Source of the DNA: Truepera sp.
GTDB lineage: Bacteria; Deinococcota; Deinococci; Deinococcales; Trueperaceae
NCBI GenBank assembly: GCA_965218435.1
Contig: CBDCKW010000009.1
Location: 3,488,001-3,552,000, forward strand
Direction of reading: 5' to 3'
Length of the DNA stretch: 64,000 bases
The position numbers were made by a program, and so were the translations under genes. Position 1 is the first letter of the stretch, and every line of letters starts with the position of its first letter. The notes below the pieces were generated by a model that searched no databases, was not told the DNA's origin, and saw only the letters and a list, made by a program, of their open reading frames with translations. Shown here one piece after another: positions 9,809 through 26,200 of the stretch.

Positions 9809-9838
9809 CTAAACCTCCCTTAGTACGGCACTCTAACA

Positions 9839-10642
9839 TCAGCGGTCAGCCGAGTTTTGCGCATCTGAACGTTTAGCCTTATCTGCCTGGGTCAGGTCTT
9901 CTCGGGTCAGTCCCGCCTCGAGCCGCGCACGCCCGTAGTTGCAGATAGCTAGTGCCGGACAACCGCTACAACGCGGCGCGTTAAAGGTGCAGACGCGCTG
10001 CCCGTGTAAGAGGAGCGCGATGTGAAAATTGTAAAGCAGGTGTGGGTCGTGTGGTAAGAGCGCAAAAATCGGGGCGTGCGCCGCCGTAGAGGTCTTGACT
10101 TTGGCGCTGATCAGGCCGACGCGCTGCGACACTCGGTAGACGTGCGTATCCACCGGCAAGATAGGTTTGGCAAAGCAGAAGAGTAGGACCAGCGAGGCCG
10201 TCTTGACGCCGACACCGGGCAGGTCGGTCAGCCACGCCATCCCCTCGTCGGCACTTAAGTCAGCTAAAAAACCCAGGTCGGTACTGCCGCTCCGCTCGAG
10301 AATCCGCGTGATCGTCTTTTGAATCTGCGGCGCTTTGGCGTCGGCAAAGTTTGAGGGGGCAATGGCTTTCGCCAAATCTTTGGTCGGCGCGTCCCGCACC
10401 GCTTCCCACGAGCCGAACTGGGTCCACATCCGGGTGTACGCAAGTTCTTCGTTTTTCCAGGTGGTGCGCTGCGACAAAATCGTCGAGATGAGTTCGTGCA
10501 TCGGGTCGCGCCGAGGTTTAAGCTCGCGTTCGCCGTACGTCCCCACCAAAATGCGGTAGAGCTCGAGGGCCTTGTCTTTAAGCGCCTCGTCTTTGGATAC
10601 CCCGTCTCTAAGTGCCCCGTCTTTAAGCGCCGCGTCGTCCAT
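9839..10642 (-). CDS. Endonuclease III (HhH-GPD) family DNA glycosylase
   Basis: LPGVGVKTA HhH, PVDTHV and the C-x6-C-x2-C-x5-C Fe-S motif. The N-terminus has 5-aa repeats. Confidence 0.9.
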   Translation of the reverse strand: MDDAALKDGALRDGVSKDEALKDKALELYRILVGTYGERELKPRRDPMHELISTILSQRTTWKNEELAYTRMWTQFGSWEAVRDAPTKDLAKAIAPSNFADAKAPQIQKTITRILERSGSTDLGFLADLSADEGMAWLTDLPGVGVKTASLVLLFCFAKPILPVDTHVYRVSQRVGLISAKVKTSTAAHAPIFALLPHDPHLLYNFHIALLLHGQRVCTFNAPRCSGCPALAICNYGRARLEAGLTREDLTQADKAKRSDAQNSADR

Positions 10643-11045
10643 ACTGCCCAGTCTGCGGGTTTGCCGCCCTGAGAGACAATAAGACAGCTCGCCTTTGGTG
10701 CGTTTTTGGCTCGAGACTCGGTTCTGCGTCTCACGTAGATAACTCTTCGCAAAAATCTAAACGGCGTTTTTCAGACATCTAGACGCTTTTATTTGCCTTT
10801 TCCATTATTGAGCTCTCCTTTCTATACGGAGCACGGAAGTCAATAAAAGGCAGTAATGTACTTGCTCCAACCAACCCCGTAATAATTTGCTTCAAAGCGG
10901 TTGGACTTGTCAGCCGATAGCAGCGGCGGCGATACAGGTCGGCTGAGCTTTATGCGTGTAACGGGCCGGAAGACCGCACAAGTTCTGTACTCCGATAAGC
11001 CACAAGAGAATTGTGCACTGGCACGCTCTGGGTGATCAAGGCACC

Positions 11046-11252
11046 TAGAGAGCATTTGAAAATCACATCGACCTGAAAACAGGCATCGAACACCCAGCTA
11101 AGTGCTTGGTCATAAGGTCGACCATGACTAGGTAGATGAAGGCTTCACTCGTCTCGGGCAGTACCTCGTAGTCCTTGCTCAAGCGCCGACTGTTGCCGAG
11201 TCAAGCTAGAGTATGCTTGACGACCCACCACGCTTGTACTTGGAGACCCTGC
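11046..11252 (-). mobile_element. IS5-family (IS1031-like) transposase 3' remnant with terminal inverted repeat
   Basis: Translates QGLQVQAWWVVKHTLA*LGNSRRLSKDYEVLPETSEAFIYLVMVDLMTKHLA, matching the IS5 C-terminal WVVERTFAWL...RRLSKDYE. Internal TGA at 11203-11201. End-like TAGAGAGCATTTGAAAA at 11046-11062. Confidence 0.85.
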
Positions 11253-11420
11253 ACCGCTGAGTTTCAAGACCTGACGCATCAACCACAAAACTTTCGTAAG
11301 TGCTATTGACTACGCAAATTCGGTGAAAAACGCAGTTGCGTCTTGCCTTGTAAAGAGGAGAGCGGCGGCGTAAAGTGCCGGGCCGAACATGGGGAGGGTG
11401 AAAACGGTTGTTATCGGCCC

Positions 11421-12461
11421 CTAAACCTCTAGCGGCTTAAGCCTTGCGACCAGGCCGCGCTTGTGCCGTTTGGCCAGCAGCTCGAGTTCACCCTCTATCG
11501 TCTCACTCCACATCTCCTTGGCGCTCTGGTGCTGCCAGCCCAGTTCGCGTTTGGCCTTGTCACTTATGTAGAACAGGCTGGTGGTAGCGGCCTTGACGGT
11601 TTCCCTCGACATAAACGCTGGCAGGCCTGCGCGCCGTTGGAGCGGTTCGAGCGGCGCGAACAGAGACGCCATCACAGCTGGAGGCAGATAGGCCCGCACC
11701 CGACCTCTGCCCGTCTTGACTGCCCACAGCTCTAGATGCTCGGCGAAACTCAAAGGTTCACCGCAGAGCAGATAGATTTCACCGGCCCGTCCCTTCTCGA
11801 CGGTCAGCACAACGCCCCGTACGAGGTCGTTTAGCTCAACGAGGGAGAACATCGACCGGGGCGACCAGGAGACGGGCGGCTTAAGCCGGTTGAGGTAGAG
11901 CCGCAGCGTGTACCCCCAAACCGAGTGGTCGTTAGGACCCATGACCCCGTTAGGGCAGACGACAATTAGCGGCGTCCCGTCCTGCTGGTACCTCAGCGCC
12001 AGCTCGTGAGCCTCGGTTTTGGTCTGTTCGTACCAGGTACCGCAGGGCGCGCGGCGGATGAACGTCTCGTCACGGGGTTGTCGCCCCGAGTCACCGTAAG
12101 CCGCAACGGTCGAGACATATACCGTCTTGGTCACGTTCAGTGCTCGCGCCGCACTCAGCACGTTGTCGGTGCCGTTCACGTTGACCGCTCTCATTCGTTC
12201 CCGGCCTGCTGTGTCCACACCGTATTCATAGTGCCCGGCATTGTGGATGACCAGCTCCGCACCTCTCATTGCGGTCTCTACCGAGTTGCGCGAAGTTACG
12301 TCACCTGCGACACAACGAACACCAAGTTGGGCAAGGTTAAGAGCCTCTGGGCTATCCAAACGGCGCACAAGGGCGGTGACGTGCCAGCCGCATTCAAGAA
12401 GCGCCCGAGTCAAGGGCCGACCAATGTAGCCTGTGGCCCCGGTAAGGAAGACCTTCATCAA
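11421..12461 (-). CDS. NAD-dependent epimerase/dehydratase (DFR-like extended SDR)
   Basis: TGATGYIG, HNAG and YEQTK motifs. Confidence 0.9.
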   Translation of the reverse strand: MMKVFLTGATGYIGRPLTRALLECGWHVTALVRRLDSPEALNLAQLGVRCVAGDVTSRNSVETAMRGAELVIHNAGHYEYGVDTAGRERMRAVNVNGTDNVLSAARALNVTKTVYVSTVAAYGDSGRQPRDETFIRRAPCGTWYEQTKTEAHELALRYQQDGTPLIVVCPNGVMGPNDHSVWGYTLRLYLNRLKPPVSWSPRSMFSLVELNDLVRGVVLTVEKGRAGEIYLLCGEPLSFAEHLELWAVKTGRGRVRAYLPPAVMASLFAPLEPLQRRAGLPAFMSRETVKAATTSLFYISDKAKRELGWQHQSAKEMWSETIEGELELLAKRHKRGLVARLKPLEV

Positions 12462-12846
12462 AACACCCCTTTGGTTCGGTATAGCGGATGACTATGCTGC
12501 TAACAGCCTTTGCCTAGAGATTACTGCGCGCAGCGTGTGGATGTCAAAGCTGACCTGAGCACCGTTTGATAAGGCGATTTAGCAGCTTCTTAGCACCAAG
12601 AATTGCAAACTAAGTACGTCCAAGCCAAAAGTTCAGCTTAATGGTCTGGAGCGTATCTCAAAAAGCATCGTTGGGCGGGATAGCTGCACAAAGTCAAGGG
12701 ATCGAGTTAAGACGCTATCCGAAAATCAGAAAAACCGTCCCAGACCTATCTTCTTCGCCTCGAGATTAAGCAGCTTCCTAATATGAACCGTTTATTTGAA
12801 GTAAACTCCCTCAACTCCGCGTGGCCTGCGTAACCCCTTCAGCGTG

Positions 12847-13227
12847 TTATGCCGACACAACCCGCATAACTTCGTCGAGCACCTCAGGGTTACGCATCCT
12901 CAAACGGTTGGGAAGTGATTGATGATTAACCAAACGCTCCAGAGCAAGCGCCATAATCCTGCCACCACGCGTTATCGGCAAACTGGAAAGTTGGTAAACC
13001 CGGCAGAGGCTCACGTCTACGCTGCTCGTTTCGGCTAGAAGCGTAGCCAAATGAACCTTTAAGTCCTCGCCAATTTGCAGCTGATCTCGCATAATGACAA
13101 ACAACCAAATTTCATCACTGGTTATAAGGTACCTGTTTACAGCAAGCGCAGCTTCAACTTCTGGCAACGCTTCAAGCTTTTTATGGAATCGGTCTCGCAC
13201 AGAATCTGAAATAGCTCTCTCCTCCAC
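12847..13227 (-). CDS. Stand-alone AMP-binding/acyl-CoA synthetase C-terminal-domain-like protein
   Basis: LEALPEVEAALAV...LFVIM...LPITRGGRIM...NPEVLDE resembles the Acs/AACS C-terminus. Start GTG 13227 lies just after a TATAGT -10. Confidence 0.6.
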   Translation of the reverse strand: MEERAISDSVRDRFHKKLEALPEVEAALAVNRYLITSDEIWLFVIMRDQLQIGEDLKVHLATLLAETSSVDVSLCRVYQLSSLPITRGGRIMALALERLVNHQSLPNRLRMRNPEVLDEVMRVVSA

Positions 13228-13237
13228 GGTCCGAGCA

Positions 13238-13271
13238 ACTATAAACCCTGTAGCCCGACCGCCTCCCGACC
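13238..13271 (-). promoter_or_regulatory. Direct-repeat promoter site 1: GGTCGG-gaggc-GGTCGG-N11-TATAGT
   Basis: CCGACC at 13255-60 and 13266-71 on the plus strand; -10 at 13243-13238. Confidence 0.75.
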
Positions 13272-13324
13272 AAGTCGAACAACGCATAGACAATGAGAGG
13301 AAAATTAAGGTAAAATGTGAAACT

Positions 13325-16300
13325 GTGCTAAGAACGCTTGGTGACCTGGTACTCGAGGGGACATCCCTACATCGTCCCAAACCTCTACTGCTGCTGGCCT
13401 ATCTGGTGCTCGAGGGTTCCACCCCGAGACGCAGACTGTCCGAGCTGTTTTTTGGCGACACCAAAGATCCCAACGATGGTCTCACCACCGCACTCAAATA
13501 CCTCAAGCAGCACCCGTCCACCATGCTCGAGGTGGGTCCAAACATAGTCGCAACCGGTGTCGGGTGCGATGTCACACTGGTGTTTGCCAAACTGAAACAC
13601 GGTCTCGTCGCTGAAGCCGCAAGTCTTTACCAGGGGGCTTTCCTAGCGACACTCAAGCTGAATCTAGGTGAGGAGCTGGAAGATTGGGTTTACACCCAGC
13701 AGGACCTGATAGCGCAGCGCTTCCGGCTGACATTAATGAACCACGTCGAAACGCAGACTGATCCGCGTAAGATGGTCAGCTTCGTCGAGCACATATGGCA
13801 CGTAACCAAGGAGCAGGAAATCGACACCGATACGCTGGGGCGGCTTTACCGTTTGTTGGACGCCAGTGGGAGTTCACTTACGCATGAGGTGAGCAAGCAA
13901 GCTGCCGAGTACGGTATTCCCTTGGTGCGTCATAGCAGCGCAGCACGAGAAGCGTCGCAGGGACCGCAGGGGACCGCACGAAACGTTGTCCCAGCTTATG
14001 TTCCCAGCCTAGTCCAGCAACTCGAACGTTTGCGGGAGAGCCCTGAAGGTCTGGCGTTATGCATCTGGGGAGCACCCGGTATCGGCAAGACCTGGACAGT
14101 CGAGCGGCTTAAAGACACCCTGTCGTTCCCCGTTTATAGTGTGATGGCCGCTGTTTCCCCAGCCCAGCTGCCCCGGAGCCTGCCCCGCGCCGCCGGACTA
14201 CCCGCATGGGCCAGAACAGTTCTCGGAAACCTTCAGGACGACAGGCTCACCGGAGGACAGGAGCTGGTCGACGCCGTCGCTGCGATCTTAGCCGCCCACG
14301 CACCGGTGGTGCTGCATGTCGAGGATTTTCATGAAGCCAGCGAACTGGCGCAGACGCTATGGTCGGCATTGGCCCTCTCGGTACAGAGGAGCCCCGGCGT
14401 AGGTCTGCTTGTTACGAGTCGGCAGCCGTCCCCGGCAGGCTTCACTCCCGACCCACTACCGGCGCTTACACGAGCTGAGATTGCGCGCGTGCTCGAACAC
14501 GTTACGGGCGCAGCGTTACCAGCTGAGGCTACCGACTGGATCGAGGACCGCGCTTTAGGGAACCCCTTGTTCGCTCTGGAGTTTTACCGCTACCTTCGTA
14601 AACGAGGCAACCTCTGGCACGATGGTAGCAGCTGGCGCTGGCGTGTTCCCACCAGCACCCACCTCCCCGACAAACTCGAAACGCTCGTCTCGCATATGTT
14701 CCAAGAGCTGGCACTCGAAGAAGGTGCAAACACGTTTGTGCAGTTAAAAGCCCTTCTACCTACCGGGACTTCCGAACAGCTCCTCGCTCAAATTGCCGGT
14801 TTGAGCGACAAAGAGATTCAAGGGGTCAAAAATACCTTGAAACAACAGGGGATATTAGGTGAACAAGATTTTGTTCATCCCCTCTACCGAGAGGTTCTGG
14901 TGGCTGGTCTTAACCGCCCGACGAAGCGTGAGTTAGCCCGGCGCATCGTGACCGTTCTAGAGGAGGCAAATCCCGAACAAGCAGCTCCATTCGTCGCCGA
15001 TGCAGGCTTGACGGATCAGTGCGCTGTGAAACTTTTGCTTCGCGCCGCAGATCACGCACGGTTGCGTGGCCTGACCAGGCAGGCTGGCGAGCTTTTGTCC
15101 CGAGCAGCGGGACATACCCAAGGTAGGCAGCGAAGCGAGCTGCTTTTGCAAGCTGCGAATGCCCTGCAAGACAACCAACCTGCTCAAACCCAACGACTCG
15201 CCGAGCGCGTCCTGGAAGCCGAACCTGCCAACGTCGAAGCGACGCTGCTGTTAGCACGCTGCCTCGTCGTGCAAGGGGAGGGTGAGCGTGCAGACGCAGT
15301 TATGCAAAGGCTCCCCCAGGCTGTCAGGCCCCGACAAGCGTGGCTCGAGCAGCTCATTCATCTGCGTACCGAAAGAAACGACTACGCGGGTGTTATTGAA
15401 CTGTGGCAGGGTGCCGCGGACCTTCACGGCACACTCGATCCGTCAGCTAAGCGTGACGTCGCCCTGTCGCTGGTCTATCTGGGAAAACTCGACGAGGCAG
15501 CCCGGTTGCTCACCCAAACCCTGGCCACCCCGGGCGTTCCCGACGAGGCCCACGCCGCCCTCCTGGAAGTGCGAGCGACCCTAGCGTTCTATACCGGGAA
15601 CTATGCGGAGGCGCTCGCCCTACTCGACGAGTCCGTCGCACTTCTGCGCGCCGCGCCCAAAACCTTACCCCTGCTAAATCGCCTTTTCCAGGCGCTTCGT
15701 GTTCGGGCGATGTGCTACTGGGGTCTGGGCGAAAACCGCTTGGCGATTGGTGATACCGAAGAAGCCATGAGTTTTGCAGGCGAGCTCGGTAGTGGCCGCG
15801 ACTACGCGATTGCTCAGACGTACATAGGCGTTCCCCTGACCGAGCTTGGTGCGTTCGCACGGGCTGAAGAGATGCTGCTCGAGAGCCGCGAGGTCCTGAG
15901 GCGCGCCGATGCCCGCGAGCACCTGGCTGCCTGCGAGGCGATGCTCAGCCACGTCTATATGGAGTGGCAACCACAGGACGCAGCAATAAAGGCTTTGCGG
16001 CACGCCCACACGTCAGTCGAGATCGCCAGAGAATTGCAGGCCCCCGTACTCCTAAGTCAAGCGACGTTTTACGCTTCCTGGGTAGAGACGACCTTCGGTC
16101 AGGGCGAGAAAGCCCTTGCGCTGGCGCAGGAAAGCCTCGAGCTGGCAACCAATTTGGGTCAGCAGCGAAACGTTGCCATCGGGTTGTGGGCGCGGGGCAG
16201 GGCGCTGGAAAAGCTTGGGCAGCCCGACCGAGCCCTAGCAGATTACCTGAAAGGGGAAGGGCTCTGCCGTGGGCTCCATTTCTTGACGTACGCGGCCCTG

Positions 16301-16459
16301 ATCGGTCTCGAGATCGACCGGCTTAAAGACGACGAGAACGCCGCCAGGGTGCGCCTCGAGTACCTGAGCGCACGCGGCGTACGCAGCATGATGCTGAGCG
16401 CACGCGAGCACTTCGCCGCGTTGTTTGGTGAGTTCGGGAGTCTGCGGCTGGACCCTTGA
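13325..16459 (+). CDS. AfsR/SARP-like STAND transcriptional regulator (wHTH-BTAD-NTPase-TPR)
   Basis: LRTLG...KPLLLLAYL (wHTH), LYQGAFL...EELEDW (BTAD), Walker A GAPGIGKT, Walker B VVLHVED, GNPLF and a long helical-repeat C-terminus. Start GTG 13325 follows TAAAAT. Confidence 0.85.
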   Translation: MLRTLGDLVLEGTSLHRPKPLLLLAYLVLEGSTPRRRLSELFFGDTKDPNDGLTTALKYLKQHPSTMLEVGPNIVATGVGCDVTLVFAKLKHGLVAEAASLYQGAFLATLKLNLGEELEDWVYTQQDLIAQRFRLTLMNHVETQTDPRKMVSFVEHIWHVTKEQEIDTDTLGRLYRLLDASGSSLTHEVSKQAAEYGIPLVRHSSAAREASQGPQGTARNVVPAYVPSLVQQLERLRESPEGLALCIWGAPGIGKTWTVERLKDTLSFPVYSVMAAVSPAQLPRSLPRAAGLPAWARTVLGNLQDDRLTGGQELVDAVAAILAAHAPVVLHVEDFHEASELAQTLWSALALSVQRSPGVGLLVTSRQPSPAGFTPDPLPALTRAEIARVLEHVTGAALPAEATDWIEDRALGNPLFALEFYRYLRKRGNLWHDGSSWRWRVPTSTHLPDKLETLVSHMFQELALEEGANTFVQLKALLPTGTSEQLLAQIAGLSDKEIQGVKNTLKQQGILGEQDFVHPLYREVLVAGLNRPTKRELARRIVTVLEEANPEQAAPFVADAGLTDQCAVKLLLRAADHARLRGLTRQAGELLSRAAGHTQGRQRSELLLQAANALQDNQPAQTQRLAERVLEAEPANVEATLLLARCLVVQGEGERADAVMQRLPQAVRPRQAWLEQLIHLRTERNDYAGVIELWQGAADLHGTLDPSAKRDVALSLVYLGKLDEAARLLTQTLATPGVPDEAHAALLEVRATLAFYTGNYAEALALLDESVALLRAAPKTLPLLNRLFQALRVRAMCYWGLGENRLAIGDTEEAMSFAGELGSGRDYAIAQTYIGVPLTELGAFARAEEMLLESREVLRRADAREHLAACEAMLSHVYMEWQPQDAAIKALRHAHTSVEIARELQAPVLLSQATFYASWVETTFGQGEKALALAQESLELATNLGQQRNVAIGLWARGRALEKLGQPDRALADYLKGEGLCRGLHFLTYAALIGLEIDRLKDDENAARVRLEYLSARGVRSMMLSAREHFAALFGEFGSLRLDP

Positions 16460-16580
16460 CCGGGCGTCAGCACAAACCGCAGTGAAGGTGAAAAAATCCC
16501 TGTTCACCCCTTGCCGATTTAGTCCATATACGCACGAAGTTGATCACGAGACGCGCTCTACGCCAGCCTCCACGTTGGCC

Positions 16581-16625
16581 GGTCGGAGGTCGGTCGGAGG
16601 TCGGTCGGAAGCAACCGTGTACCGT
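16581..16625 (+). promoter_or_regulatory. Direct-repeat promoter site 2: (GGTCGG-aggtc)x2-GGTCGG-N11-TACCGT
   Basis: GGTCGG at 16581, 16592 and 16603; -10 at 16620-25. Confidence 0.8.
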
Positions 16626-16701
16626 GATGGCGTAGCGGACGTGAGAAGATCCAAAGCTGTTGGAAAAGCCAAAAACGTCGCGCTGTCGAGGGGGAAAACA
16701 T

Positions 16702-17937
16702 ATGTTTCGCAAGCCCTTGTCGCACACTCTGCCACTTTCCGCTATCGTACTGTTTTCTCTGCTAGCGCCGTGTAGTCAGGCCCCGGTCAACGAAGCTTTA
16801 CCTTTAGTAACGGGCGAGCTGACGACGGCGGCAACGGTCCCCCCGCAGGGCACCCGACCAGCGCATATTCGCTGGCAGGGCGGCAGCCTGACCCTCGAGG
16901 GCTGTGCCTGGCGAGGGGTTGACCGGAAAGCCTCCGCCTTTCGTTCTCTCTATCTGGAAACGGCGCGTCCCCCTGGGCACCTGATGGTTTATGACGGTCG
17001 CCGCGACCGCTACTTCGTTTTCCCTGAGCGCGGCGGTCAGTCGTACTGGCGTAACGCTTCGAGTTCGTTATGGTTCACCTTCCGCAGGGTCGAGCCGTTC
17101 TCGCTGCCGCCCAAAAAATTTACCTACACCGCCTTTTCCGGCACGGACTACCAGCGTTCGCTGTGCCCGGGCAAGCACGTGTCGTTGCTGCTGGCTCCGC
17201 GCCCCACAAGGGAGCTGCTGACGACGGCTCGAGTCGTCCCGGCCCTCGACGCGGCTTACGAGGTCTACCACAGCTTTACCAAACGCGAGCCGCAACCTCA
17301 CCGTCTCGTTTACAACCGCCTGCCTATCGCCGAAATTCCGGACGGCGGTACCTGCGGTGCGGGGTGCGGATACCTCGGCTTTACCGGGATCGAGATCACA
17401 AGCCCGTTTGTAGACAGCCTGATCGGTGGGATCAGCGCCCGCAACGAATACGACCAGGTGGTCTTTTACGAACTGGGCCGGAACTTCTGGTTTTACGGCG
17501 AGCAGCTCGGCGCGCTCGACCCGTTCGTTACCGGCTTCGCTATCGCAGGTCGGTTTATCTCGCTGAAAGAGGCGGGCCTACAGGGCAGCCCGTTTAATGG
17601 GCTGGCGTTTGCCACCTTTCGCAAGGCTGTCACGGACGACCTGCTGGTGACGTTTTTGGCCGACGACAACCTGACCTGGCGGAACACCTTGGGCGAGGGG
17701 CGAGCGCCACCCAATCCTTACCAGCTCAGTGCCAGCGACCTGGCCGGGGCGATGTTCTGGCAGGTCTACAGAGACTACGGCCTGGCAGGGTTGACGCGTT
17801 TTTTTACCGAACTTTACGCCCGTCCCTACGCCGCTACCCCGAAGCGGGCTGTCACCAACTTCGTGGCTGCCGCGTACGCGGCGACCGGCAAAGATTACCG
17901 TTACCTCTTCAAAGACGGGAGCTTGCGCCTGCGGTAG
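16702..17937 (+). CDS. Secreted hypothetical protein with degenerate zincin-like motif (YELGRNFW)
   Basis: RBS GAGGGGG, signal/lipobox-like LLAPC, CGAGCGYLG and DQVVFYELGRNFW. Confidence 0.7.
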   Translation: MFRKPLSHTLPLSAIVLFSLLAPCSQAPVNEALPLVTGELTTAATVPPQGTRPAHIRWQGGSLTLEGCAWRGVDRKASAFRSLYLETARPPGHLMVYDGRRDRYFVFPERGGQSYWRNASSSLWFTFRRVEPFSLPPKKFTYTAFSGTDYQRSLCPGKHVSLLLAPRPTRELLTTARVVPALDAAYEVYHSFTKREPQPHRLVYNRLPIAEIPDGGTCGAGCGYLGFTGIEITSPFVDSLIGGISARNEYDQVVFYELGRNFWFYGEQLGALDPFVTGFAIAGRFISLKEAGLQGSPFNGLAFATFRKAVTDDLLVTFLADDNLTWRNTLGEGRAPPNPYQLSASDLAGAMFWQVYRDYGLAGLTRFFTELYARPYAATPKRAVTNFVAAAYAATGKDYRYLFKDGSLRLR

Positions 17938-17993
17938 CGCCTTAGCCAACTGAGCTCGAGCGCGTAACGGGGCCATAGTATGGCCCTGACGCA

Positions 17994-18027
17994 ACCTGCA
18001 CACCCCGACCACCTGTACACTCCGACC
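17994..18027. repeat. 17-bp tandem duplication carrying GGTCGG half-sites (minus strand)
   Basis: acctgcacaccccgacc / acctgtacactccgacc. Confidence 0.75.
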
Positions 18028-18101
18028 ACGAGAAGCGCGCGGCGCGCCCCCTACCCGCCTCCGTGCGACCGGAAACAGCGTGGTACCCAAGACACAGGGC
18101 C

Positions 18102-18135
18102 GGTCGGAGGTTGGTCGGGCTGCACTGTGCATACT
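18102..18135 (+). promoter_or_regulatory. Direct-repeat promoter site 3: GGTCGG-aggtt-GGTCGG-N11-CATACT
   Basis: GGTCGG at 18102 and 18113; -10-like hexamer at 18130-35. Confidence 0.75.
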
Positions 18136-18358
18136 TACGACTACGTGCTGGGAATGTTGCACAGCGCTCACGACGCGGGGTTTGGGCCGAAGATAGAACG
18201 GCCCGCCACCGTCGTGGGGTAGCCGGTCGGGGAGAAATCCCCAGCCGACGGGGTACACCGCAAGCACGCGCGAAGGGCGCAGGGAGCCGGGACGAGACTC
18301 CAAGTCTACTTGCTGATGGTCCAGCCCTGTCGTTCCAGGGTTGGAAGGGAGAGAAGAG

Positions 18359-21300
18359 ATGAAAAGGTATATGTGGCTCGTCGCCTTCGTTCTGGGGGCC
18401 TGCAATCTGGTACCGCAGGGCGCGCCGGAGGGCGTCACCACGATAGAACCCACCGCCGGACACGCCTACGATTTTGTCTTGAAGTGGGGAACTAAAGGCG
18501 ATGGTAACGGGCAGTTCCAGCTACCACACGGCGTCGCTGTAGACGGTAGCGGCAACGTGTATGTGGCGGATCAAAGCAACAACCGCATCCAGAAGTTCAA
18601 TTCAAGCGGCGACTTCATCACCAAGTGGGGAACTGAAGGTAGTGATGACGGGCAGTTCCAAATCCCACGGGGCGTGGCTGTAGACGGTAGCGGCAACGTG
18701 TTTGTGGCGGATAGTAACAACAACCGCATACAGAAATTTGCTCCTGCCAAAGACAAGGACCCGCAGACCATAACCTTCGGCGAGTTGGCGGGCAAGACCT
18801 ACGGCGGTGCACCCTTTACCGTCACCGCCACGGCCTCGTCCGGCTTGCCCGTAGCGTTCGCTTCGGACACCCCCGGCGTCTGTACGGTCTCGACGACCTC
18901 AGAGGGCGGTACCGTGACCCTGGTGGCGGCGGGGACTTGTACCGTGACCGCCTCGCAAGCCGGGAACGACGACTATGGGGCTGCCGCACCCGTCTCCCGG
19001 AGCTTCGCCGTCGCTAAGGCGAACCAGACCGTAAGCTTTACCAGTGCGGCTCCGGACGGGGCTACGGTGGGCGGCTCGTACCCGGTCGAAGTCGGTGTCA
19101 GCTCAGGCTTACCGGTGGCGCTGAGCGCGGGTCCCGAAGCGGTCTGTACCCTAGACGAGAGCACCGTCACCTTTGTCGGTGCGGGCGAGTGTACGGTGCG
19201 TGCGAACCAGGCCGGAAACGCCAACTACAACGCCGCGCCGGAGGTTACGCAAACCCTCAGTGTCGTTAGGGCGACCACACCCTCCATCCTCACGGCGGTG
19301 TCGGGCTCGGGAACCTACGGAGACAGCGCCACCCTGCGCGCCACCTTGCAGGCGAATGGGGACGCAATTAAAGGCAAAACCGTGAGCTTTACGCTGAACG
19401 GTACCCCAGTCGGAGATGACGTCACCGACGACGACGGGAACGCCACCCTCACGGGCGTAGACCTCACGGGTGTGGACGTAGGTACTCAGACGGGCGCGGT
19501 GACGGCGAGCTTTGCGGGCGACGACGGCATCGGCGGGAGCAGCGAGAGCGGCGACTTGACGGTAGCAAAGGCGGATCAGACGCCCGCCTTTGCCGAGGGC
19601 ATCCCAACGACAGCTGAGCGGGGCAGCAGCGCCACGCTCGAAGTCAGCTCGGCTACGGCCACACCGATCACCTTGAGCAGCGCGGGGAGCGCCTGCACGG
19701 TTTCAGGGCTCGAGGTGTCGTTCGTCGAAGTCGGTAACTGCACCCTGACGGCCGTGCAGGCCGAGACCGCCAACTACAACTTCGGGACGGCCACCCACAC
19801 GGTTGAGGTGGTTCAGACGCTCACCGATACTACCCTGACGAACGTCTCCGGCTCGGGAACTTACGGAGACAGCGCCACTCTGCGCGCCACCTTGCAGGCG
19901 AATGGGGACGTAATTAAAGGCAAAACCGTAAGCTTTACGCTGAACGGTACCCCGGTCGGGGATGACACGACCGATGCGAACGGGGACGCCACCTTGGCGT
20001 TAGACCTTACAGGTGTAAACGCCGGGACGTATACCGACGCGGTGTCGGCGAGCTTTGCGGGTGACGATGAGGACGCTTTAGCTGCGAGCGAGGCGCTCGG
20101 CACCCTGAACGTGACCAAGGCCGACCAGACCCTCTCGTTCAGCTCCGAACCACCGACGAACGCTCGAGTCGGCGGCAGCTACACCGTGAGCGCGGACGCC
20201 ACCTCCGGCCTGCCGGTGTTTTACCGCTCGGCGACCCCGGCGGTGTGTACCGTCCTGGCGAGCACCGTAAACTTCGTGGGTGCCGGGGAGTGCGTAGTAG
20301 CGGCCAACCAGCCGGGAAATGGGAACTACAACGCCGCTCCGGAAATTACCCAGCGCACCACCGTCGCCGCTTCAACAGACGGCACAGCCCTCAGCGTCTC
20401 CGGTGCGGGTACCTACGGCGGCGCGGGCACGCTTACAGCGACGCTCACCACGGGCGGCACACCGCTCTCGGGCAAGTCGGTCGCTTTTACGCTCAGCGGC
20501 AACGCTGTAGGCAGTGCGACGACGAACGGCAGCGGCGTGGCGACCCTTAGCGGGGTGGGTCTCGGCGGTGTGGACGCGGGCAGCTATGCGGACGCGGTCG
20601 GCGCGAGCTTCGCGGGCGACGGTACTTTTGACCCGACCCTCGGTTCGGGTACCTTGAACGTGAACAAAGCCGCTCAGAGCGTCTCGTTTACCTCCACGCC
20701 CCCGTCGAGCGCCGAAGTGGGCGGTAGCTACACCGTCGCAGCGACGGCGACCTCGGCGCTGCCCGTCTCCTTCTCGTCGGACTCGAGCGCCTGTACCGTC
20801 TCGAGTGAGACCGTCACCTTTACTTCGGCGGGTAGCTGCACCGTGCGCGCTACCCAAGCGGGGAACACCAACTACGAGGCCGCGTTCGCAACGCAAAACG
20901 TCACCGTTCAGGAGCCTGCGCCCCCCACGGCTACCAGCGACCTCTACACCGTCACCTTCGACGGTCTCACCCCCGGGCGCATCATCTCGAACGTCGCCTT
21001 GAACCAGGGTATCGTCAGCGCTACGGGCGACCGCACCGACAAGGTGTACGTCTACGCTCGGCGCAGAAATCGGAGCGGCAACGTAGCGATGGTCACGGGC
21101 TCAGACCGGGAACTCCTCATCAGCAAAGACGGCAGGAGTCAGACAAGCTACACTAGGGGCGGATACATCGGCTTCCTCTTTAGAAACTTTGGCGCGGTAG
21201 ACGTGAACACGTTAGAGGTCTCGGGTGTCACCAAAGGTGGCGGGAACGTATCGCTGTTCCGAGGAAGTCGTCGGGTTCGCTCGTTCGCCATTCCCAAAAC

Positions 21301-21415
21301 AGGCGCTTCGGGCAGCGCGACGATCAGTATCGACGCCGAAGACATCGGGCTCGTGGTCGTCACCCTCGGGGGACCCGGTAGAGTAGACGATCTGTCCTTC
21401 GAGGCGAACCGATGA
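18359..21415 (+). CDS. Large surface lipoprotein: 2 NHL repeats + ~8 Ig-like repeats + C-terminal beta domain
   Basis: Lipobox VLGAC. FQ.P.GVAVDGSGNV.VAD..NNRIQKF twice. Repeated QT..F...SGLPV...CTV...G.CTV.A.QAGN.NY and SGSGTYG..ATL.ATL modules. Confidence 0.88.
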   Translation: MKRYMWLVAFVLGACNLVPQGAPEGVTTIEPTAGHAYDFVLKWGTKGDGNGQFQLPHGVAVDGSGNVYVADQSNNRIQKFNSSGDFITKWGTEGSDDGQFQIPRGVAVDGSGNVFVADSNNNRIQKFAPAKDKDPQTITFGELAGKTYGGAPFTVTATASSGLPVAFASDTPGVCTVSTTSEGGTVTLVAAGTCTVTASQAGNDDYGAAAPVSRSFAVAKANQTVSFTSAAPDGATVGGSYPVEVGVSSGLPVALSAGPEAVCTLDESTVTFVGAGECTVRANQAGNANYNAAPEVTQTLSVVRATTPSILTAVSGSGTYGDSATLRATLQANGDAIKGKTVSFTLNGTPVGDDVTDDDGNATLTGVDLTGVDVGTQTGAVTASFAGDDGIGGSSESGDLTVAKADQTPAFAEGIPTTAERGSSATLEVSSATATPITLSSAGSACTVSGLEVSFVEVGNCTLTAVQAETANYNFGTATHTVEVVQTLTDTTLTNVSGSGTYGDSATLRATLQANGDVIKGKTVSFTLNGTPVGDDTTDANGDATLALDLTGVNAGTYTDAVSASFAGDDEDALAASEALGTLNVTKADQTLSFSSEPPTNARVGGSYTVSADATSGLPVFYRSATPAVCTVLASTVNFVGAGECVVAANQPGNGNYNAAPEITQRTTVAASTDGTALSVSGAGTYGGAGTLTATLTTGGTPLSGKSVAFTLSGNAVGSATTNGSGVATLSGVGLGGVDAGSYADAVGASFAGDGTFDPTLGSGTLNVNKAAQSVSFTSTPPSSAEVGGSYTVAATATSALPVSFSSDSSACTVSSETVTFTSAGSCTVRATQAGNTNYEAAFATQNVTVQEPAPPTATSDLYTVTFDGLTPGRIISNVALNQGIVSATGDRTDKVYVYARRRNRSGNVAMVTGSDRELLISKDGRSQTSYTRGGYIGFLFRNFGAVDVNTLEVSGVTKGGGNVSLFRGSRRVRSFAIPKTGASGSATISIDAEDIGLVVVTLGGPGRVDDLSFEANR

Positions 21416-21454
21416 GGTGAAAGAGTCCGCAAGGTAAAACCCGACCGCAGACAG

Positions 21455-21483
21455 AGTGCCGGACGTTCCGGCACTTCTTCTTT
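21455..21483 (+). terminator. Intrinsic terminator
   Basis: AGTGCCGGA-cgt-TCCGGCACT followed by a T-rich tail. Confidence 0.75.
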
Positions 21484-21738
21484 GAGCCCTCAAGCAAACG
21501 ACGCTGCGGCCTAGGCAGCGTACATGAGCTCAGCACTTCGCTGACCAGCTACGACGTGGATGACACGACCGACCCCACGCGAGTTCATCTCATGATGCGG
21601 TAGTTAAGAGGCGTCGTCATCAGCTGAAAACCCGTTTTCAGAGCTGAGCTACCCTTTAGACCGGGATTTGCTGCACTGGCCTTAGCAGACCCTATAGGGG
21701 CAGGCTACGCTGACTTAGCTTCCGAAAAAATCTCGGTA

Positions 21739-22572
21739 CTATCCGAGCGACTCAGGAGCGGCCCAGGTGTATAGCGCATTGACAGGGATAGGCGGTCCGA
21801 AGACGCTGCCCTGCTGAACAAGGCAACCAAGGGCGTGAAATTGCTCTAGCTGCCCTTTGGAGTCTATCCCGCACGCTACGACGGTCGTATCGAGTAAAGA
21901 CGCGATCTCGAGCACACTTCTAAGGAGCAGTAGTGGGTAGTGGGGGTTATGGAGGGGACGAGCCAAACGTTTTGCGATAGAAGCGTCCAGCAAGACGGTC
22001 GTAAAGTCGATTTCCTCAAAACACTCGAGTGACGCCTGTTGACCGCCGAAATCACTTAACGCCAAGCCAACACCCCAACGAGACAGGTCTGCAAGCCACC
22101 GCTTTGTTTCTTTCGAGACTACGGCGAGTTCGCTTGCATTTATGGTGAGTTCAAGATGCTGCGGGGTTAAATTGGCCACCATCAAAGCCTGCTCGACAGC
22201 GTTCAACAAGGGTCTGCCAATGTTACAAACGCTTATCGGAAAACAGACGGTGCGCTTTTCTGAGGTGACGACCTGTTTAGCCCCAAGACATGCCTGAATA
22301 AGAAAAGAGGTTGCTATAGCTGTAACGTCGCCAAGAGAAGTCGGCGCTAGCTTAGCTGTTGTCGTTGCAAATTCGTGATCCGATGTAGTGTGACTAAACG
22401 CGAGTTTAACTGCCCTTAAGGTCTCGACATCGACCACAGGCAAGAAATAAAAAATACCCCGTCCGCTCTGAACGGTTTTATCAGGGATTGCCTTACCCTG
22501 CACTGAAGCTGTCTCGTCAGCGTTTCGCAAGTGAACTGCGGCATCTGTAGGGGGATGATCCGGTTTGCACAT
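21739..22572 (-). CDS. Degenerate EAL-domain protein
   Basis: EAL-fold motifs are recognisable (HLELTI, GVGLALSDFG, VVACGID, LGCLVQQG...GPP), but EAL, DDFG, the KID Lys and AEGVE are altered. Start ATG 22572. Confidence 0.8.
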   Translation of the reverse strand: MCKPDHPPTDAAVHLRNADETASVQGKAIPDKTVQSGRGIFYFLPVVDVETLRAVKLAFSHTTSDHEFATTTAKLAPTSLGDVTAIATSFLIQACLGAKQVVTSEKRTVCFPISVCNIGRPLLNAVEQALMVANLTPQHLELTINASELAVVSKETKRWLADLSRWGVGLALSDFGGQQASLECFEEIDFTTVLLDASIAKRLARPLHNPHYPLLLLRSVLEIASLLDTTVVACGIDSKGQLEQFHALGCLVQQGSVFGPPIPVNALYTWAAPESLG

Positions 22573-22577
22573 AAAAG

Positions 22578-22611
22578 AGTTTGTCAAACAAGGTCCGACC
22601 AACTCCCGACC
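22578..22611 (-). promoter_or_regulatory. Direct-repeat promoter site 4: GGTCGG-gagtt-GGTCGG-N11-CAAACT, 5 nt before ATG
   Basis: CCGACC at 22595-600 and 22606-11 on the plus strand; -10-like hexamer at 22583-22578. Confidence 0.75.
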
Positions 22612-23150
22612 ACCCCTCTGGTGCAGTTAGGTTGTCCAAAGTTACAGACTAAGACCACCCGAGAGTAAGCACCATACGCAAGGTATTCCTATGCTGTTTG
22701 ACAAAAAGCTTAGCGGCGTCGAGAGTTTGGGAAAACAGTCCTCTAAAAACAACAGGTTGAGGCTTCGTTTGAAGATGGTACAGGCGCTCAGGGCGATCTT
22801 CTTGTCTGTCGTGACGGTATCTACTCACGCACCCGGAAGCTTGTTTTCCCGAGAGCCCAAAACCTTCGTACCTTAGAATGTGCCAGGTAACTTAGCTGTT
22901 GGACGCTGGGACGCTGACAATTTGCCAGCGAATTGGAAAGAAATAAGGAATCGCTGGGAGGTTTTTCAGGGCTTGCGGTCCTGGTTGTTTCTGCTTGATT
23001 TTGTGCTGTTGTGCTTGGCTATTACGCTGTATTCGTAAAAGTGTGACTCTTATGCGGTAGTTGAGCGCAAATACTGCTGTAGCAATGAGACACCAGGCGA
23101 AAGACGCCTGTAAAGGTCTTTAGTGTACTGAGTATGTTACCCACTAAAAC

Positions 23151-24545
23151 CTAATCAGTAAGCGGTAGCCGCACCGTAAAGTGCGTTTCCCCCGGTTTTG
23201 AGTCTACCCGCACCGTCCCGTGATGCCGTCTCGAGACGATGCGCTCGACAATATCGAGCCCCAAGCCGGTTCCTTCACCGACGCCCTTAGTCGTAAAGAA
23301 CGGCTCAAAGATACGCGCTTGCACCTCCGCGGGAATACCGGGACCGTCGTCGGCCACGTCTACACAGGCGTAGTTGCCGGACGCGTCGAGCGACGCACTC
23401 AGCGTGACGGTGCCGCCCTCGGGCGCAGCCGCAACAGCGTTGTCGAGCAAGTTCGTCCAGACCTGATTAAGTTCTGCGCCGTAGGCCGGGACAGGGGGCA
23501 GCTCAGCGAGTTGTTTAACGAGCTTGAGGTCTTTTTTCTTAAACTTGTATTTGAGGATGGTCAAGGTGTCGTACAGACCTTGTTTAAGGTCGGTCGGACG
23601 TTTTTCTTGCGCCTGATCCATATATGAATACGCCTTCATCGCGCCGACGAGTTCCGAGATGCGCCGCGTACTCTCTAAGAGCTCACCGACTAAGAGCCGC
23701 ATCTCGACGTCGCGGGGAATCCACTCGAGCACATTCTTCGCCTGTTCTTCGGTCACAGCTGTCATAAAGGGCTCGAGCACGTCCCGCGTCAGGCCGCCTG
23801 CGACGAGGGTTGCAGCCGCGTCCCACGGTTTATGAACGCCTTGTTCCTCTAAAAAGTCACCGAGGTCGTCTTCTAACTCACTTTGTTCGACGACGCCCCG
23901 GGCCGGACTCGTTAGGGTCATGACGTCGTAGATGGGGCTGAAAGGGTCACCGCCCAAAGGTCTGGATTTGAATACGACTTCTGCAAGAATTTTAGACGAG
24001 TGTTCATCAAAACTTTGGAGCGTTTCTAACAGCGTTTGCGCCGCGCGGTGCGCCGCCGCTGCCGGGTTATTGAGTTCGTGCGCCAACCCCGCCGACATCG
24101 TACCGAGCGAGACGAGCTTCTCCTGCTGTTCGCTCAGCCGGGTGTACTCGCGTGTCCGGTCGAGCATCAAGCTGATCAGGCGTTCTAACAGCCCCGGCGC
24201 GTGCGCGTGCATCTCGGGAAAGTGGTCGCGGTGCAGGGTGGCACTTTGTAAGGGTAGCGTGGCCCGCCCGACGCCTGCTGAAGCTTTCATCCTCGAGTAC
24301 GGCAAGCGCCCGGTAATTTCGCCCGCCAACACCGAGACGTAAGCGACCTCGCGGCCCCCCTCATAGAGGCTGATCTCCAGCCGGCCCGAGAGGATAATCC
24401 TGAGCGCGTCAATGTCGTCGCCCTGCTTAAAGATAACCGCGCCTGCGTCGTCTTGATGGAGCGTGCAGTGCGCGGCGAGCCACGCTAAATCCCTTTCCGG
24501 TAGGTCGGAAAGTGCTGGGACACCGGCAAAGTCAAATGCCTTCAC
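23151..24545 (-). CDS. Sensor histidine kinase with N-terminal cyclic-nucleotide-binding domain
   Basis: cNMP-like IFKQGD...GEITG; H-box [12 protein letters not shown]1, F and G2 boxes ([26 protein letters not shown]). Confidence 0.92.
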
Positions 24546-26200
24546 GCGCCGACCTCAGCCAGATACTGATGGACAAACTGCACCGCAATCGAACCCTCAC
24601 CGACCGCCGAGGCGACCCGTTTCACCGACCCTGCCCGTACGTCGCCAGCTGCAAACACACCGGGAACGCTGGTCTCGAGCAAAAAAGGGGGGCGCTCGAG
24701 CGGCCACGCGCCGATTTTTTGCGTCTGCAAACCCGTATAGATAAAGCCGTTGGGGTCACGCGCCACTTCAGCTGTTCCGGCTGCGCCGCCCAACCAGTCG
24801 GTCCGGGGTGACGCGCCGATAAAGATAAACAGGCCGCTCGAGGCGACCTCCTGTTCATCGCCGTTACAAAGCAGCGTCAGAGACCCCAAGTGCCCGTCCC
24901 CGTGAACGGCTTTGACCTCGGCGCGGAGGAACAAGTGGATATTGTCGGCCGCGTAAAGCTGTTCGACCAAATACTGCGACATCTTCGCGCCTAAACTGTC
25001 TCCCCGCACGAGGAGCGTGACCGAAGCAGCGTAGCGAGACAAGTACAGCGCGGCCTGCCCCGCCGAGTTCCCGGCTCCGACGATATGCACCGTCGCACCC
25101 TCGTACGCCGCCGCTTCAGAGACCGACGAACCGTAGTAAACGCCCGCCCCGGTGAGCGCCTCGGCTCCGGGCAACGTAAGCTTGCGGTATGACACCCCCG
25201 TCGCCACAACGAGCGCGTGGCAGCTCAGCGAACCGCCACCCCCCAAGCTGAGCACCTTGTAGTCGCCCTCGAGACTGAGCTGTTCGACGCCTCTAGGTGC
25301 CACGATCTCCGCGCCGAATTTGCGGGCTTGCGTCGTCGCGCGCCGTGTCAGGTCGCCGCCGGAGAGCCCGACCGGAAACCCTAAATAGTTTTCAATCCGC
25401 GAGCTCGTCCCCGCTTGACCGCCGGGTGCGTCGGCGTCTAAGAGCGCCACTCTGAGCCCTTCGGACGCGCCGTACACGGCGGCGGCTAACCCCGCCGGTC
25501 CCGCGCCGACGATCACGAGGTCGTAAAAGCTTTGTTCGGCCTGCGTCTGCAGTCCCGCACGTTCAGCGACCTCGGCCGTACTCGGACGAGCTAGGCGGGT
25601 ACCGTCTTCTAAAATCACCAGCGGCAGGTCGCTCGGCGCGGCGTTCCCCAAGAGCGCCGCCGCCTCGCCGCCGCTCTCGACGTCGAACCAGCGGTACGGG
25701 ACGCCGTGCCGCGCTAAAAAGTCGCGCAGGGTGTAACCGCCTGCGTCCCAACGTGTGCCGATGATCCGCAGCCCTGAAAAGGCGGGCCGGTAGTCGGCGG
25801 TCCAGTCGTCTAAGAGGTCGTCTAGTACCGGGTAGAGCTGCGTCTCGGGCGGGTCCCACGGTTTAAGCAAATAGTAGTGAATCCGGCTCTGATTGATGGC
25901 GGCGATGGCCGCGCCGGTGTCGGCGTAGGCGGTCAGCATCACCCGTTTGGCGTCGGGGTAGAGCGTCATAGCCTCCTCTAGAAACGCGACCCCGTTCATC
26001 CGGGGCATCCGCTGGTCAACTAAAAAGAGCGCCACGGGGTCGCCCCGGTCTTTAAGGTCTTGCAGCGCAGACAGCGCCGTCTCGCCGCTGTCAGCCCGGA
26101 CGATGCGAAAGTTCTCGCCGTACTGCCGCCGCAGGTCGCGGCTTACTGCGCTCAGCACCTGCGGATCGTCGTCAACGCTCATAATGACGGGTTTAGGCAT
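24542..26200 (-). CDS. Response-regulator receiver fused to thioredoxin-reductase-like FAD oxidoreductase
   Basis: VDDD...LVDQRMP...LTAY...KPW receiver; GAGPAG, SSRIENYLGFP, GAGNSAGQA and FAAGDVR. Confidence 0.92.
   Translation of the reverse strand: MPKPVIMSVDDDPQVLSAVSRDLRRQYGENFRIVRADSGETALSALQDLKDRGDPVALFLVDQRMPRMNGVAFLEEAMTLYPDAKRVMLTAYADTGAAIAAINQSRIHYYLLKPWDPPETQLYPVLDDLLDDWTADYRPAFSGLRIIGTRWDAGGYTLRDFLARHGVPYRWFDVESGGEAAALLGNAAPSDLPLVILEDGTRLARPSTAEVAERAGLQTQAEQSFYDLVIVGAGPAGLAAAVYGASEGLRVALLDADAPGGQAGTSSRIENYLGFPVGLSGGDLTRRATTQARKFGAEIVAPRGVEQLSLEGDYKVLSLGGGGSLSCHALVVATGVSYRKLTLPGAEALTGAGVYYGSSVSEAAAYEGATVHIVGAGNSAGQAALYLSRYAASVTLLVRGDSLGAKMSQYLVEQLYAADNIHLFLRAEVKAVHGDGHLGSLTLLCNGDEQEVASSGLFIFIGASPRTDWLGGAAGTAEVARDPNGFIYTGLQTQKIGAWPLERPPFLLETSVPGVFAAGDVRAGSVKRVASAVGEGSIAVQFVHQYLAEVGA

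Follow-up and report, generated by a model that had tools for sequence, protein, structure and literature searches.

What is the role of four sites of paired GGTCGG hexamers that surround a large regulator-like gene in a bacterium of the genus Truepera, and which protein would read them? The locus lies in a stretch of 64,000 nucleotides of Truepera sp. (Trueperaceae, Deinococcota; assembly GCA_965218435.1, contig CBDCKW010000009.1, positions 3,488,001-3,552,000), hereafter the window, and coordinates are window positions unless a genome (C9), G or L label is given. The original prediction for this DNA was that the protein encoded at 13325-16459 activates four neighbouring genes (genes A to D) and thereby forms an undescribed regulon. 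Our analysis suggests that it quite probably does so: the protein would bind the 11-bp direct repeats of the four neighbouring promoters and in this way activate them.

Each site carries exact GGTCGG hexamers at an 11-bp period, and 11 nt after the last of them stands a -10-like hexamer (Table 1). All four sites are intergenic and each is oriented towards an adjacent gene. They were all found again where the original prediction had placed them, with the same spacers and the same -10-like hexamers. Two extra GGTCGG matches within site 2 (16588 and 16599) are by-products of the aggtc spacer merging into the next hexamer. Constant between the sites are the hexamers, their period, the spacing from the -10 and, within the -10 itself, the A and the T; the remaining bases differ.

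Table 1 Features of the regulator locus and its surroundings, in window coordinates.
Feature	Position	Strand	Description	Basis or orientation
Species-specific island	10699..23147		~12.4 kb; whole module and epimerase gene	congener DNA comparison
Epimerase gene	11421-12461	-	NAD-dependent epimerase, on island beside module
Gene A	12847..13227	-	126 aa, stand-alone C-terminal domain of acetoacetate/acetyl-CoA ligase	NCBIfam NF002937
Site 1	13271-13238	-	GGTCGG gaggc GGTCGG gctacagggtt TATAGT	toward gene A, divergent from regulator gene
Regulator's own promoter	13287..13316	+	sigma-70-type, TAGACA-18-TAAAAT	best consensus match in 12700-23200, 10/12; consensus match only
Regulator	13325..16459	+	1044 aa: SARP-like winged helix-turn-helix + BTAD (~1-210), STAND NTPase AAA_16 (231-356), TPR region to C-terminus	Pfam, AF2, Foldseek, VIA
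Site 2	16581-16625	+	three GGTCGG (16581, 16592, 16603), spacers aggtc, then aagcaaccgtg TACCGT	toward gene B
Gene B	16702..17937	+	411 aa, secreted, widespread unnamed family	homologue search, AF2, Foldseek
Site 3	18102-18135	+	GGTCGG aggtt GGTCGG gctgcactgtg CATACT	toward gene C
Gene C 5' leader (predicted)	18142..18358	+	~220 nt	fold z-score -2.0, no Rfam match
Gene C	18359..21415	+	1018-aa lipoprotein (lipobox VLGAC), NHL repeats and Ig-like (Big_3_5) domains	Pfam, internal repeats
Gene D	21739..22572	-	277-aa stand-alone degenerate EAL domain	Pfam EAL, E 1.5e-20
Site 4	22611-22578	-	GGTCGG gagtt GGTCGG accttgtttga CAAACT	toward gene D

GGTCGG by itself is over-represented in the window (102 occurrences vs 49 expected), and a few extra flanking bases are common to sites 2 and 3 and to sites 1 and 4 (families D8 and D18). 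Both observations would suit an origin of the four sites as chance matches or as remnants of duplicated DNA with no regulatory role. The spaced pair, however, behaves differently from the single hexamer. GGTCGG-N5-GGTCGG has six overlapping matches in the window, all at these four places, so that the originally noted lack of any further paired site holds. Shuffled sequences gave an expectation of 0.03, none of 100 shuffles contained at least six matches, and a similar density of the motif in random DNA was thus not seen. A search of both strands of the 4.8-Mb genome gives six places with the exact hexamer pair, and the sites account for four of them. The other two are identical 17-mers GGTCGGTTTTGGGTCGG outside the window (C9:2949642-2949658 and C9:610373-610389), with no -10-like hexamer at N11; these 17-mers may belong to a different repeat. 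The full pattern, GGTCGG-N5-GGTCGG-N11-NANNNT, is found genome-wide only at the four sites, all inside 9.4 kb around the regulator gene, and among hexamer pairs with one mismatch NANNNT follows in 4 of 73, about the chance rate. Across 364 genomes of the phylum the full pattern has 25 matches in 21 genomes, with about 38 for a reversed control (our own count from the table). The background in the 363 other genomes is about 0.06-0.1 matches per genome, and the maximum in any one of them is two, vs four here. The four-site observation is confirmed as real, and chance is excluded as its source. In addition, all four sites have no more in common than the hexamers, the period, the -10 distance and two bases of the -10 (A and T), every one is directed at a gene from intergenic DNA, and the same architecture recurs in other genera (see below). 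Sites without a regulatory role are therefore very unlikely.

As a promoter, each site reads as a 22-bp box (GGTCGG plus five bases, twice, or three times at site 2), 6 nt and the -10-like hexamer. The literature on SARPs cited here was available in part. In it, SARP promoters are described as having direct repeats with a spacing of 11 or 22 bp and the 3' repeat 8 bp from the -10 (PMC10936776). The afs box covers 22 bp (-40 to -19) with two 11-bp repeats, contacted over their first 8 bp; a poor -35 overlaps with the box, and a suboptimal -10, CACTGT, lies downstream of it (PMC10936776). When the 3' repeat of the Truepera sites is taken as the heptamer TCGGRNN, it ends exactly 8 bp before the -10. 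The -35 positions at 17-nt spacing read GGAGGC, GAGGTC, GAGGTT and GGAGTT, and none of the four contains a -35-like hexamer. Sites with three repeats are known for DnrI, ActII-ORF4 and others (PMC10972967). As far as can be read from the sequence, the geometry of the four sites equals the published SARP/afs-box rule, and all four accord with the predicted SARP-style placement of direct repeats one helical turn apart just upstream of the -10 (PMC10936776, PMC10972967).

The regulator starts at GTG 13325, the point at which its homologues begin with MLRTLG; an alternative longer open reading frame (ORF) from 13094 would traverse site 1. Pfam assigned AAA_16/AAA_22 to residues 231-356 and several TPR families to residues 613-977, and the Walker motifs GAPGIGKT and VVLHVED are visible in the translation. 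A phmmer search of the PDB with the whole regulator returned only TPR proteins. An AF2 model of residues 1-250, built on a 19-sequence alignment, had a mean predicted local distance difference test score (pLDDT) of 88, with values that exceed 90 as far as residue 200. Strands at the N-terminus are followed in it by three helices, a beta-hairpin wing and a helical bundle. The six best Foldseek matches in the PDB were AfsR (8k60 chains J and I, and 8hvr_I; E 4e-4 to 9e-4, TM 0.53-0.55) and EmbR (2ff4, 2fez). VIA-align gave Z values of 13.0, 12.0, 11.8 and 11.5 for AfsR/EmbR over 201-222 residues, and the next row, at Z 8.2, covered the winged helix only. The N-terminal ~210 residues are therefore predicted, on modelled structure, to fold like the SARP domains of AfsR and EmbR. 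A SARP domain followed by a NOD/STAND NTPase and TPRs is the architecture described for "large SARPs" (PMC10972967). By predicted fold and domain order, from its SARP-like N-terminus through the NTPase to the TPRs, the Truepera protein is an AfsR-like large SARP. The SARP/STAND-type reading of the regulator in the original prediction is supported in each of its parts, namely the AfsR/EmbR-like predicted fold, the STAND NTPase with Walker motifs and the TPRs. Taken together with the four cognate direct-repeat promoters, it held up in all the computational tests made.

Defence islands commonly contain STAND NTPases that have TPR sensors, and the regulator gene lies on a species-specific island. 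These circumstances would fit an Avs-like anti-phage STAND sensor, whose N-terminal winged helix acts as an effector rather than as a promoter-specific regulator. Such a role is scarcely credible here, as the N-terminus is predicted to be a transcription-activation module of winged helix-turn-helix and BTAD, cognate repeat promoters surround the gene, and its neighbours encode surface or secreted proteins, not nucleases or other effectors. PADLOC matched no families among the five proteins of the module at E <= 0.01, a blank that a new defence system would also give.

The regulator gene has a putative promoter of its own (Table 1), with the GTG 8 nt past the -10 in a leaderless-type layout, and site 1 lies 16 bp upstream of its -35. 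Because this promoter has a consensus -35 and -10 whereas the four target promoters have no -35, the regulator looks constitutively promoted and its targets activator-dependent. The opposite effect may also be considered, in which the regulator binds but represses or modulates, with site 1 perhaps serving chiefly for autoregulation of the divergent regulator gene. Box and core promoter overlap, so a protein bound there could also occlude RNA polymerase, and the short distance from site 1 to the regulator's -35 points the same way. We regard repression as unlikely, however. The regulator's own promoter has a -35-like hexamer and the four others have none. The distance from the box to the -10 is the same as in SARP-activated promoters, where the activator replaces -35 recognition (PMC10936776), and the SARPs characterised in the available text are activators (PMC10936776, PMC10972967).

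If this protein reads the repeats, its homologues may be expected beside repeats of their own. The family has roughly 200 members in the phylum. Named homologues come from Deinococcus, Meiothermus and Thermaceae, and the nearest ones (P0003-P0008) are metagenomic, with 55-59% N-terminal identity; two scans of metagenome contigs, with the regulator and with P0007 as queries, found no encoding locus. We searched the region up to 600 bp upstream of each homologous regulator for an exact hexamer repeat followed by N11 and NANNNT, with periods of 7-16 and in both orientations, using 19 non-own regulators from the phylum search and then a second, independent set of 27. In the first set, period 11 in the divergent orientation was found seven times, and periods 7-10 and 12-16 and the co-directional orientation 0-2 times each. 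In the second set, period 11 was found four times divergent and twice co-directional, and all other periods together twice. The repeat search beside homologous regulators thus gave divergent 11-bp repeats for 11 of 46, vs two repeats for the nine other periods taken together, and a GGTCGG box in three genomes (G006, G333 and G334). The rest had no strict divergent repeat. A scan of whole loci for the period was set aside for the upstream-only test, being confounded by coding repeats at multiples of 3.

The repeated hexamer varies with the regulator, among GGTCGG, GATCGG, TATCGG, GATCAG (three copies), GGACAC, GTTAAG and GTTAGC. NRTCGG repeats stand beside 5 of 19 regulators whose recognition-helix region is DPxD[SGA]L vs none of 27 with other helices, and the corresponding region of the Truepera regulator is DPNDGL. 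A search for looser NRTCGG repeats beside the other 34 homologues found one unconvincing site, in L026. The covariation of helix and hexamer is suggestive, and falls short of statistical proof because the regulators are related to each other.

Among the 21 non-own full-pattern matches of the phylum scan, three are divergent from a homologous regulator and stand 57-92 bp upstream of it (G006, G333 and G334; the count is two without G334, an unpublished genome). The regulator of G333 (908 aa, NB-ARC and TPR) is followed by two such promoters, GGTCGG-attta-GGTCGG-N11-CATACT before a Big_2 lipoprotein gene and GGTCGG-actta-GGTCGC-N11-CATACT before a 149-aa ORF. Ig-like lipoproteins, AhpD/CMD-like proteins and a secreted protein are among the products of the genes that other homologues have behind their divergent promoters. 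In L058 (G333:C121), the stretches 8683-8735 and 9642-9675 are near-identical copies of a promoter plus leader, aaaaacGGTCGG...CATACTAAG..ATCTCCAAAGG..AAAGGAGGTTC, before two different genes beside the homologous regulator, and a third GGTCGG stands 19 bp upstream of the first box.

These comparisons bear on the possibility that the sites are real operators of a different binder, such as a SARP-like paralogue, an OmpR-type response regulator or another factor, and that the adjacent regulator has other targets. OmpR/PhoB-type response regulators also bind direct repeats one helical turn apart, and the same genome encodes two more SARP-like N-termini. The recognition-helix region of these two paralogues differs, however, and they have no GGTCGG repeats. 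The motif occurs nowhere else in the genome and surrounds the regulator gene on an island that unites the regulator with the sites. Homologues elsewhere have their own repeats right alongside, and the GGTCGG box accompanies homologues in three other genomes. A different binder is therefore improbable, and we retain the adjacent regulator as the favoured candidate.

Several results weigh against activation of the four promoters by a SARP-type regulator. Pfam found no family in residues 1-242 even at E <= 10, including Trans_reg_C (PF00486) and BTAD (PF03704), and these two domains were assigned in none of 30 sequence homologues. A profile of 19 homologous N-termini searched against the PDB gave no SARP chain and weak TPR-like matches only. 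Because sequence models and profiles miss the N-terminus, the SARP assignment depends on predicted structure, with modest Foldseek E-values and TM of ~0.54, and SARP membership finds no support at the level of sequence, although recognition by these models is a criterion of detection and not of structure. The -10 hexamers of the four sites are weak. No orthologue of the regulator was found in the 364 phylum genomes, in which the best N-terminal identity was 42%. As for the family, the strict divergent period-11 repeat is present in only the 11 of 46 homologues given above, two loci of the second set (L062 and L087) can be read on both strands and are ambiguous, and the homologues are mutually related, so that the repeat counts are not independent. 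Among the DPxD[SGA]L regulators, 14 of 19 have no NRTCGG repeat in the 1.1-3.6 kb of flanking DNA examined. The whole-locus period scan was noisier than the upstream test, with 14 cases of period 11 vs 13 at periods 12 and 18. Finally, activation is preferred over repression only on the position of the box and the missing -35.

What is shown are the sites, the predicted fold and the architecture of the regulator, and an association across its family; from these we infer how binding, activation, gating and signal may be arranged. By analogy with AfsR (PMC10936776, available in part), SARP domains would sit side by side on successive repeats along one face of the DNA, two at sites 1, 3 and 4 and three at site 2. 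The bound domains would stand in for the recognition of a -35 and bring RNA polymerase to the weak -10, as in the "sigma adaptation" of AfsR (PMC10936776). ATP binding relieves autoinhibition in AfsR (PMC10936776), and in the same way the NTPase-TPR part may keep the SARP domain inactive until ATP and probably a TPR-sensed ligand are bound. The output would be a small accessory regulon of a secreted gluzincin-fold protein, a large NHL/Ig-like lipoprotein, a degenerate EAL protein and the C-terminal domain of an acyl-CoA ligase.

The closest known counterparts are AfsR of Streptomyces coelicolor and other large SARPs (PolY, RslR3), which have the same order of SARP, NOD/NB-ARC and TPR in ~1000 aa. 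AfsR structures (8k60, 8hvr) are the best structural matches, and its promoters likewise have two 11-bp repeats, a 22-bp box ending 6 nt before a weak -10, a 3' heptamer 8 bp from the -10 and no usable -35. However, the Truepera regulator is only 15-17% identical to AfsR in the structural alignment, is invisible to the Pfam Trans_reg_C and BTAD models, and belongs to the Deinococcota rather than to the actinomycetes. In place of a biosynthetic cluster or an afsS-like gene, its predicted targets comprise genes on a 12-kb island for surface or secreted proteins and for degenerate enzyme domains. Small cluster-situated SARPs (ActII-ORF4, DnrI, RedD) are also encoded within the gene set that they control, and their heptamer repeats have an 11-bp period and overlap the -35 region of several local promoters; unlike the Truepera regulator, they have no NTPase-TPR sensor and control antibiotic biosynthesis genes. 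EmbR of Mycobacterium tuberculosis (2fez, 2ff4) shares the fold of winged helix-turn-helix and BTAD (VIA Z 11.5-11.8 over 204-222 residues), but has a C-terminal FHA domain, is controlled by Ser/Thr phosphorylation and has neither STAND NTPase nor TPRs. MalT and other STAND activators resemble the Truepera regulator in a signal-dependent, ATP-bound STAND switch in which a TPR/SUPR-type sensor governs the DNA-binding domain, according to the available text of PMC10936776, whereas MalT has a C-terminal LuxR-type helix-turn-helix and differently arranged MalT boxes.

The nearest relatives of the NTPase-TPR part of the regulator (29-34% identity; L004 1420-4572, also L002 and L006) start directly with the NTPase. 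Relatives of the L004 type show, by eye, a SARP-like C-terminal segment (LRLEVLG...KKRFELLALLL...LWRGTYL), which would mean a permuted domain order. Comparison of this segment of L004 with the N-terminal profile by hhalign gave no significant match (E 0.11), and no domain was found there with Pfam. CTGACC-N5-CTGACC direct repeats (L004 4585-4640) lie just 3' of the gene, before a small zinc-ribbon ORF.

The four target genes are of different kinds. Gene A matches NF002937 at positions 539-651 of 657 (E 5.6e-12, 44.6 bits vs a cut-off of 639), had no Pfam match and is unique in the genome. It is without the N-terminal adenylation domain (~500 aa in ANL ligases), and the lysine position of what we take to be a PKTRSGK-type motif reads PITRGGR. 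Judged by its sequence, gene A cannot act as a ligase alone. Its start codon is uncertain, with a GTG 10 nt past the -10 of site 1, so that its transcript might be leaderless.

Gene B has a signal peptide and no canonical lipobox, and no Pfam or NCBIfam match was found. Its strongly conserved family comprises 148 homologues at E <= 1e-5 (P0033-P0151 among them) and spans many phyla; fusions of its members with RTX, PEP-CTERM, T9SS or PKD modules are frequent. The AF2 model of gene B (pLDDT 81.5) matched gluzincin peptidases of families M1, M60 and M61 in Foldseek (E ~1e-4, TM 0.3-0.42), and the ESM Atlas gave only leads below 0.9, to the M60, M61 and DUF6055 families. The zinc-binding HExxH helix of gluzincins is absent from the family and the only candidate helix reads YELGR; its placement at the HExxH position comes from our inspection of the model and not from an alignment. 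Of 120 family members, 119-120 keep the motif FYELGRNFWFY unchanged. Gene B is therefore not a decayed copy, and the missing HExxH is a trait of the whole family. Such a family could be one of pseudo-peptidases throughout, or represent a new catalytic type.

Gene C is the only target with a canonical lipobox, has five Ig-like repeat units, and is followed by a terminator-like hairpin at 21454-21476 in a terminator scan. Its predicted leader is G+C-rich with several hairpins and may add a second layer of control. No Rfam match to a riboswitch or other known RNA was found at E <= 1 across 12500-23200.

In gene D, motifs of active EAL domains are changed (EITE to TINA, DDFG to SDFG, KID to LLD and EGVE to CGID) and the EAL motif position reads KLA by eye. 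The protein is thus a degenerate EAL domain, with other residues at the acidic and lysine positions of catalysis. The -10 of site 4 is followed after 5 nt by its ATG, a leaderless-type layout. The earlier description of the targets as a surface lipoprotein and three pseudo-enzymes fits gene C as the lipoprotein and genes A and D as pseudo-enzymes, but not gene B, which is not decayed.

The module lies on an island that is specific to this species (Table 1). In a DNA search of five congeners, the island flanks, 9207-10698 and 23148-26194, were 0.1, 1.0 and 3.2 kb apart in G002, G003 and G005, so that the 12.4 kb between them is absent at the same position in three of the five. The two remaining congeners are uninformative on the island because the right flank was not found. 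The sole match to island content in G002, G003 and G005 was the epimerase (68%), elsewhere in G005. An endonuclease III-like gene adjoins a histidine kinase gene in the three congeners without the island. At either edge of the module the G+C content falls to ~0.50. The island borders showed no flanking direct repeats, tRNA-like target, integrase or mobility genes. The regulator and its operators thus came in, or were kept, together as a single accessory island.

Some further features were observed around the island. Beside it, a conserved gene pair (23151-26200, minus strand) encodes a histidine kinase with an N-terminal cyclic-nucleotide-binding domain and a response-regulator receiver fused to a thioredoxin-reductase-like flavoprotein, an output without a DNA-binding domain. 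The 5' end of the endonuclease III-like gene has a 15-nt periodic repeat (10566-10636), which encodes a repeated N-terminal peptide KDxAL(K/R)D. Two small ORFs (61 aa, and 52 aa with a hydrophobic helix) lie at 22691-23038 (plus strand) in a low-G+C stretch between site 4 and the histidine kinase gene, and have no repeat box upstream.

SARPs are textbook activators of actinomycete antibiotic clusters, and their promoter mechanism was solved only in 2023-24. They are described as "mainly found in actinomycetes" (PMC10936776), and for Deinococcus deserti a response regulator combining receiver and SARP has been reported with targets not known (PMC3564903); each article was available in part. No SARP-STAND regulon or operator in Deinococcota was found in the open-access literature searched, a negative that does not prove absence; the other Deinococcus item there was an unrelated use of the name (PMC1274311). 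The term "undescribed regulon" in the original prediction therefore applies to this regulon and to the divergent subfamily, but not to the principle, which is known from AfsR-like large SARPs. The mechanism is an ordinary one, and what is new is a divergent branch missed by domain models, the phylum and the non-biosynthetic targets.

A broader view, which we put forward tentatively and hold at somewhat less than an even chance, is that Deinococcota have a family of large SARP-STAND regulators invisible to Pfam, each member with its own divergent hexamer of 11-bp period as an "address label" that changes in step with the recognition helix (for example, NRTCGG with DPxD[SG]L and GGACAC with DPHGSLR). 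The result would be readable and portable sense-and-respond cassettes, by which genes for accessory surface proteins travel from genome to genome as self-regulating islands. The window would then hold the fullest example, a single regulator together with four labelled promoters in 12 kb.

The locus and its relatives would extend the operator logic of SARPs (side-by-side binding to 11-bp repeats, a constant spacing from the -10 and the lack of a -35) to Deinococcota, with surface and secreted proteins as targets instead of metabolite clusters. The case also shows that a whole branch of the SARP family escapes curated domain models. With one regulator, four promoters and a clear 22-bp box, the locus is a compact and unusually clean test system, and related regulators with differing repeats offer a natural series for the recognition code of the SARP domain.

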